Assembly (NCBI GenBank): GCA_031409355.1
Contig: JANNXB010000205.1
Span: forward strand, 1-33,270
Direction: 5' to 3'
DNA: 33,270 nt
Source: Betaproteobacteria bacterium
GTDB lineage: Bacteria; Pseudomonadota; Gammaproteobacteria; Burkholderiales; SG8-39
Shown here: positions 16,445-16,466 of the stretch, in pieces
Numbering within the stretch: position 1 is the stretch's first letter
Layout: every line of letters starts with the position of its first letter
Position numbers and translations under genes: made by a program
The notes under the pieces: model-generated
Told to the model about the DNA's origin: nothing
The model's input: the letters and a program-made list of their open reading frames with translations, nothing else
Database searches by the model: none

Positions 16445-16466
16445 ATAAATAGGGTCAGAGTCAATT

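Follow-up and report, generated by a model that had tools for sequence, protein, structure and literature searches.

The window, that is, the whole stretch of 33,270 nt that was analysed, belongs to assembly G000; other G codes stand for further genomes, and L and X codes for contigs or loci and public runs. The part of interest contains the following features:

15234..16403, plus strand: metZ, O-succinylhomoserine sulfhydrylase (NCBIfam NF006003, 699 bits, above cut-off; Pfam PF01053)
16404..16444, minus strand: orphan lpxH 3' end of 41 nt, tail A, with Ser codon AGC (direct repeat D1)
16445..16466, plus strand: REP unit of 22 nt, a singlet assigned by sequence and the sole copy in G000
16467..16886, minus strand: vapC-like PIN toxin gene, 139 aa (PF01850, E 2.2e-12), stop TAG at 16467-16469
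16890..17123, minus strand: Phd/YefM-type antitoxin gene, 77 aa (PF02604, E 1.6e-8; TIGR01552)
17124..17164, minus strand: cassette leader with the palindrome GTACA-N7-TGTAC at 17140-17156
17165..17205, minus strand: functional lpxH tail, tail B, with Ser codon TCG, the type of the insert-bearing genomes
17165..17902, minus strand: intact lpxH, UDP-2,3-diacylglucosamine diphosphatase (NF003743, 288 bits; TIGR01854, 255 bits; both above cut-off)

The metZ gene is the convergent neighbour, and its TGA (16401-16403) abuts the stop of the orphan tail, reading TGA followed directly by TCA. Tail A comprises the last 13 codons and the stop of lpxH, encodes ALDDVGPRLVSF plus stop, does not differ in peptide from the true lpxH end (17165-17205), and is joined to no gene; it is placed against metZ exactly as the real lpxH tail is in insert-free relatives. 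Tails A and B are identical at 32/41 nt (78%) and all their differences (9/9) are synonymous, including the Ser codons AGC and TCG. The antitoxin gene lies directly upstream of the PIN-domain gene with a 3 nt gap, an arrangement that qualifies the two as a predicted type II toxin-antitoxin (TA) pair, and the palindrome in the leader is a likely operator. Contigs from two other studies bridge the junction (X5 record 10, 16404-16712 with 0 differences, and X6 record 21, 16415-16878), thus an artefact of assembly can be discarded. We also observed, within the coding sequence of lpxH, an AT-rich patch with T and A runs (window 17425-17460), in a segment only 55-62% identical to G049, and the 12-mer TTTTTTGAAAGG at 17448 and again at 17676.

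The exact spacer from the vapC stop to tail A is thus formed by the 22 nt at 16445-16466, which read ATAAATAGGGTCAGAGTCAATT and can be divided into an A-rich flank (16445-16451) and a core, GGGTCAGAGTCAATT (16452-16466). The initial annotation, made from the window alone, had described a toxin stop, 22 nt and an orphan lpxH tail in this order, AT-rich against a GC-rich background and with an internal TGAC-TC-TGAC repeat. This description was right in all details: the G+C content is 7/22 vs 65.4% genome-wide in G000, and the repeat is present on the minus strand. Neither terminators nor promoters were found in or beside the 22 nt (0 sites), an Rfam search with E up to 1 returned 0 matches, and no hairpin that beats shuffled sequences was predicted for the single unit on either strand, with or without the orphan tail (0 kcal/mol). 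In this sense, calling the motif non-hairpin holds for one unit, while doublets of the family fold at -31.3 kcal/mol (z -7.9).

By its sequence and by its behaviour in relatives, the 22 nt element is one solitary unit of a REP/REPIN family. The family consensus is given as AAAAtGGGGTCAGAGTCAATTTcC, and the one built from 37 units, cassette loci left out, reads aggAAAAtGGGGTCAGAGTCAATTTcC; the window unit agrees with the latter at 15/15 core positions and 19/20 conserved positions, so the whole 22 nt can be taken as one REP unit. The likeness to GGGGTCAG-type repeats beside RAYT genes, pointed out in the initial annotation, was therefore correct. The significance of the motif comes from its occurrence in other genomes and not from the window, where the 15-mer gave 1 match at ≤3 mismatches vs 0.39 expected and 30/100 shuffles gave at least one, which is not significant. 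At ≤1 mismatch the 15-mer is found in 11/34 genomes of the genus, the reversed control pattern in 0/34, and across the bacterial family it occurs in 48/201 genomes (G533 among them is flagged as unpublished) and 13/34 genera, with one control match. G006 alone has 23 copies at ≤1 mismatch and, with a looser pattern, 35 units and 0 control matches; these are arranged as 12 inverted doublets (starts 46-64 nt apart), 6 unpaired units and two long inner-facing pairs. G465 has 85 units. The family is therefore multi-copy in these relatives and forms REPIN doublets in G006, and G000 has one singlet. Uniqueness in the genome had been named beforehand as a result that would speak against the initial reading, and the 22-mer is indeed unique in the G000 assembly, even at 4 mismatches.

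REP and REPIN sequences together with their HUH-Y1 transposases (RAYT, or TnpA-REP) have been described for Pseudomonas fluorescens SBW25 and E. coli (PMC3337134; PMC3116915; PMC8266576). In the genus studied here, the RAYT gene of G006 (C166, 242 aa) matches the NCBIfam REP-associated tyrosine transposase with 77 bits, just under the 80-bit cut-off, and has a single unit immediately upstream of the start codon and two inverted ones downstream of the stop; a gene 77% identical to it, with the same flanks, is present in G014 (C195). The association of the repeat with an HUH-Y1 gene was thus borne out by inverted copies around RAYT in both genomes, and a cognate RAYT accompanies the repeat also in G484, G581, G584, G465 and G573. 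No cognate RAYT was found in G000 or G049. The other RAYT-like genes of the genus are ≤51% identical to that of G006, and the Y1 gene flanked by the same motif that the initial annotation proposed to look for was not found in G000: the only one (C327:360-1170, locus L027, 233 aa) is 48% identical and is flanked by inverted repeats of another family, GGGACAGTCCACG, which has 24 matches in the assembly. G000 also carries AAATCGGGGTCAGAGCCCGATTT, a hairpin repeat with a 7-bp stem and 37 matches, to which no RAYT could be assigned within the 90%-complete assembly. That the 22 nt might be a degenerate copy of this abundant repeat was considered and rejected, the motif being identical to the G006-type family instead. 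Copy number parallels the cognate RAYT, with 35 units in G006, which has it, and 1 in G000, which does not. With one copy, no cognate RAYT and no structure of its own, the G000 unit would be a passenger.

The comparison of relatives places this unit as the conserved last element of a small mobile vapBC (Phd/PIN) cassette, made up of operator, vapB, vapC and REP. The cassette measures about 0.72 kb and was found in 3/34 congeners and in one metagenome contig (L150), with identities to G000 of 85% in G049 (coding part), 81% in L150 and 76% in G006; its DNA was not found in 400 other sampled genomes of the order. The four copies lie in three different flanking contexts, since that of G049 occupies the same metZ/lpxH site as in G000, that of G006 lies between a GGDEF-like and a TctC-like gene, and that of L150 is inside a TA-rich islet. 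All four are similar from the GTGTAC palindrome upstream of vapB to the repeat core, and beyond CCC their sequences differ; on the REP side, G049 loses homology directly after CCC and L150 after CCCTAT, and in G000 it extends through the whole T-rich flank. No gap separates the unit from the toxin stop in G000, G049 and L150, and in G006 the gap is 5 nt. Relatives were also searched for an empty REPIN at the place where G006 has its cassette; synteny is not kept there. Beside the L150 cassette, the islet includes PIN/AbrB-like and MazE-like genes and orphan gene fragments, and the tail of a membrane-protein gene occurs twice on this contig, as a direct repeat of 165 nt with 88% identity (728-892 and 2305-2469).

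The REP core is conserved among the cassettes more than its surroundings. Of its 15 positions 14 are invariant across the four copies, vs 441/670 coding columns and 87/216 third codon positions (40%), giving binomial P values of 0.017 and ~3e-5, respectively; 11/656 coding windows of 15 nt are conserved as well as the core. Between vapB and lpxH, or in the equivalent place of L150, no second repeat was found in G000, G049 and L150. Among the VapC matches listed there are two close relatives, L150 (86% identity) and L062 (80%), and the remaining ones (78 genome-contig and 79 metagenome-contig loci) are ≤50% identical. L062 has no REP after its stop, therefore the repeat would have been gained within the cassette group of G000, G049, G006 and L150.

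The metZ/lpxH site itself is a recurrent place of insertion. In 13 genomes of the genus, among those returned (G015, G021, G013, G018, G023, G014, G010, G007, G019, G001, G011, G002 and G022), metZ and lpxH are convergent and adjacent, without space between them, and their stops overlap or abut. Other genomes carry inserts at this site: G049 a vapBC cassette as in G000; G024 three TA-like modules, genes for a cyclase and a YHS-like protein, and two additional fragments of the lpxH tail; G008 likewise the cyclase and YHS-like genes; G009 a gene for an Rv0078B-like antitoxin and another of 185 aa without Pfam match, both on the opposite strand (L015, G009:C2, 820-1561); and G012 a cyclase-like gene. 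Neither an orphan tail nor the repeat is present at the G009 site.

Tail types follow this division. AGC-type tails are found in G015, G021, G013 and G018 (AGT in G014), where metZ and lpxH abut, and TCG-type tails in the insert-bearing G049, G024, G008 and G009, with the exception of G023, which has TCG and abutting genes. Tail A is identical at 35-37/41 nt to the tails of the insert-free G015, G021 and G018; tail B is identical at 37-38/41 to those of G049, G009 and G024, and at 31-34/41 to those of the AGC-type G015, G021, G013 and G018. From these types we infer that inserts and the adjacent lpxH end probably move together between lineages. As the lpxH and metZ stops abut without intergenic space, an insert would survive here only with a replacement tail.

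The array of G024 deserves a separate description. Downstream of lpxH (L013, G024:C13, 3440-5160) there are three TA-like modules in tandem. One pairs a HigB-like gene with an HTH_37 antitoxin, another consists of a ParE-like toxin and its partner of 85 aa, and the remaining one combines an antitoxin-like gene of 84 aa with a truncated PIN start. They are split by extra lpxH tail copies of 80 and 18 nt, which makes three lpxH tails in all, and the array looks like the product of repeated displacement at one site. The tail duplications with TA modules of G024 have no REP, so tail duplication does not need one.

The junction forms were compared by aligning contigs of four public runs with the region, read where contigs cover it, and they show a constant REP edge joined to variable points of lpxH. 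The lpxH-side breakpoint lies 41 nt before the stop in G000, about 72 nt before it in G049 and in an X5 contig, and 105 nt before it in another X5 contig. The lpxH remnant after the REP of G049, which begins at about -72, is longer and decayed, and the G049-type flank in X5 has its loose end at 16452; the third form, also from X5, passes straight from position 16445 into lpxH sequence at -105. Homology shared at the REP-side joint of G000 is at most 2 nt (TC). L150 has kept ~20 nt of a TCG-type lpxH tail beside the cassette leader in a context that is not lpxH, which indicates that it descends from an lpxH-linked copy. The coding state of the orphan tail is pristine, without any non-synonymous change, and this suggests that the G000 joint was formed much later than the split of the G000 and G049 cassettes, which are 15% diverged.

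In our opinion the best explanation, to which we give a probability of about 0.55, is that the 22 nt are a passenger REP at the end of a vapBC cassette that reached lpxH by recombination between relatives, and not by transposition in G000. A first crossover, anchored in lpxH, would have brought a foreign, synonymously recoded lpxH tail (tail B) together with the cassette from a relative to the recipient. The second joint would have been illegitimate, at the outer edge of the REP and 41 nt before the stop codon of the recipient's own lpxH, whose native tail would thus have been left as an orphan against metZ. The varying lpxH joints to the same REP edge fit a recombination anchored in lpxH. Such a route, homology-facilitated illegitimate recombination, is documented (PMC3240628); the locus as reconstructed here would resemble it in its single homologous anchor, placed in lpxH, with the donor allele on that side and an illegitimate joint on the other, and differs in that the donor-side breakpoint keeps returning to the REP edge. 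The Vibrio cholerae T6SS immunity genes form arrays by sequential displacement in which displaced remnants pile up (PMC5361080), as the three lpxH tails do in G024. The gene cassettes of chromosomal integrons are comparable in being small, poor in promoters and able to carry TA pairs, and in building up as tandem arrays at a single site; on the other hand, no attC-like imperfect palindrome is found in the 22 nt and the repeated sequence is the tail of the neighbour gene. We know of no case of homology-facilitated illegitimate recombination in which the donor-side breakpoint recurs at one element.

Some results do not sit well with a passenger that travelled by recombination. The core, invariant at 14/15 positions while only 87/216 third positions are, is more conserved than expected of a decaying passenger, and a constant REP side joined to a variable lpxH side points to a defined DNA end, which would not be expected from plain illegitimate recombination. 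Furthermore, G006 has just two long inner-facing REP pairs, one around the cassette and the other around the RAYT, and a sliding identity analysis of lpxH and metZ gave no clear signal of a donor lineage or a mosaic breakpoint. These points have to be weighed together with three other explanations. That the 22 nt are an unremarkable AT-rich spacer which happens to resemble a repeat would agree with a 15-mer that is not significant in the window and is unique in the G000 genome, but this is hardly credible, as the core is 15/15 identical to a repeat with 23 copies in G006, the control pattern has zero matches in the 34 genomes and the unit is kept in four diverged cassettes; the comparisons with the genus, the cassettes, G006 and the consensus all contradict it. 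Another explanation is that the REP is an operon element kept to serve vapBC, for example by lowering toxin translation or by setting the mRNA 3' end, and that its place at the cassette edge only reflects its being the last selected element. REPs near stop codons are reported to reduce the translation of the upstream gene, the unit abuts, overlaps or lies within 5 nt of the toxin stop in G000, G049, L150, G006, G459 and G531, and the core is conserved in genomes without a cognate RAYT. Nevertheless, we consider such a role improbable: the single unit has no predicted structure, there is no terminator-like site, the related L062 cassette works without REP, and such a role gives no reason for the second, inverted REP that precedes the antitoxin gene in G006 and G459.

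The remaining explanation gives the REP an active part, as the right end of a non-autonomous unit mobilised by RAYT in which a TA pair replaces the RAYT gene, that is, a cargo-carrying REPIN; a RAYT acting in trans would have cut the REP edge, the DNA end would have joined into lpxH, and the G000 copy would be a one-ended derivative. Evidence for this comes mostly from other genomes. Besides its 12 short doublets, G006 has exactly two long inner-facing pairs, one with RAYT (761 nt) and one with vapBC (737 nt), both with the G-variant unit upstream and the A-variant downstream. Also in G459, which belongs to another genus, a TA operon (88-aa antitoxin and PIN_3 toxin) lies within a 763-nt inner-facing pair of the same REP family (L261, G459:C108, 200-1000), and the TA pairs of G006 and G459 have no BLASTP similarity. 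Among the pairs listed, ten inner-facing ones 450-900 nt apart were examined, a small sample, and 8 hold RAYT (G006, G014, G484, G581, G584, G465, G573 and, truncated, G488) and 2 a PIN-type TA (G006 and G459); longer pairs have ordinary genes inside. This sample is the strongest hint that REPs and PIN-type cassettes are related beyond chance. In addition, a second cassette of the G459 type, at 76% identity, has retained the REP at the toxin stop in G531, without a clear upstream partner (L265, G531:C221, 560-700), and, as said above, the core is conserved beyond neutral expectation and the REP edge is constant. In G459 the repeat itself supplies the last codon and the stop of the toxin gene, so that the stop is inside the REP. 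Against an active REP end, the second REP is absent in G000, G049 and L150, the REP-side breakpoints are not nucleotide-precise across copies, the target duplication of 41 nt that accompanies the insertion is recoded and must have its origin in another lineage, no cognate RAYT was found in G000 or G049, and L062, with an 80% identical VapC, lacks the REP. Also, the excerpts of the literature searched for RAYT or REPIN with TA or other cargo contain no description of TA cargo between REPs or of cargo mobilisation by RAYT. We therefore hold this explanation to be rather unlikely for the window, and we keep a direct role of RAYT as a minority reading, in view of the conserved core, the recurrence of the joint and the two TA cassettes bracketed by REPs.

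The initial annotation had further proposed testing whether copies of the motif are enriched beside duplicated gene tails and cargo genes, and no such enrichment was seen. The duplicated-flank score of this locus is 31, the top of G000, and is reached by 12/300 random control sites. No duplicated flanks were found at the other 46 REP clusters of G000 (scores ≤29; many clusters are near contig ends, which limits this comparison) nor at 31 clusters of this REP family in other genomes (scores ≤30). Among the neighbours of REP copies, 27/46 ORFs have Pfam matches and almost all of these are housekeeping genes, with one nucleotidyltransferase of a HEPN/MNT pair in G003. This HEPN-like/nucleotidyltransferase pair is located between xerD-like and ybaK-like genes (L031, G003:C19, 520-1540), and a singlet of the window's REP family stands at its promoter side, with an AT-rich flank much like that of the window. 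Taken with G024, the flank and neighbour results speak against the REP as a general maker of tail-duplicating insertions. Of the initial proposal that the motif is a cis-acting end, the likeness to the REP family stands, and the insertion by a single-strand nuclease in G000 is not supported as it was stated. A cis-acting role in other genomes may still be considered, because the REP edge is a recurrent joint and a PIN-type TA is found twice in the RAYT slot.

Comparison with the REP/REPIN systems gives a mixed picture. The present family is alike in its short unit with A/T-rich flanks, in its inverted doublets, ~50 nt apart, that form long hairpins, and in its single RAYT flanked by the cognate repeat. 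The relation of copy number to RAYT (35 units in G006 and 1 in G000) parallels a genome without RAYT which is described as having very few REPs (PMC3390384). It is unlike those systems in that the single unit of the window is not palindromic, and in that this singlet has a conserved core in a genome without RAYT, when REP singlets are described as decaying remnants (PMC3337134). It is also unlike them in travelling with a horizontally moving TA cassette, when mobile elements are reported in REP-free regions, and in that a TA pair takes the place of RAYT inside a REP pair in G006 and G459; REPs have, in the same source, been proposed as recombination sites (PMC3390384).

A second point of comparison is IS200/IS605. 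The HUH-Y1 enzymes of these elements act on ends that are marked by short structured repeats, and there are derivatives that lack the transposase and carry cargo (PATEs); the enzyme family, the short repeat ends and the possible mobilisation of cargo in trans are therefore shared features. The G000 insert is unlike them in having one end only, without fold or subterminal hairpin, where two structured ends would be expected, and the flanks of the four copies differ, with no common target tetra- or pentanucleotide, where a fixed target would be expected. The 41-nt duplication is a further difference, and to our knowledge HUH-Y1 transposition does not leave a recoded target duplication of that length.

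REPs and REPINs are viewed as cargo-free, vertically inherited residents of stable genome regions, with singlets as decaying junk. The locus described here departs from this view in three respects: a TA cassette that moves horizontally ends in a conserved singlet, a REP is a recurrent joint with the tail of an essential gene, and PIN-type TA pairs lie between inverted REPs, in the slot of the transposase, in two genera. It is conceivable, though we regard it as doubtful, that inverted REPs carry PIN-type TA pairs in the RAYT slot, that RAYT in trans moves or cuts them, that the REP edge seeds insertions into the 3' ends of essential genes, where the incoming recoded tail permits survival, and that the REP of the window is the footprint of such an event. 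If RAYT enzymes do act on such units, these domesticated transposases would gain a role in moving genes, and the entry of accessory genes at sites without intergenic space, through gene-tail replacement, would be explained. Should RAYT enzymes not act in this way, the locus would remain a clean natural case of recombination that replaces the tail of a gene in a convergent pair.
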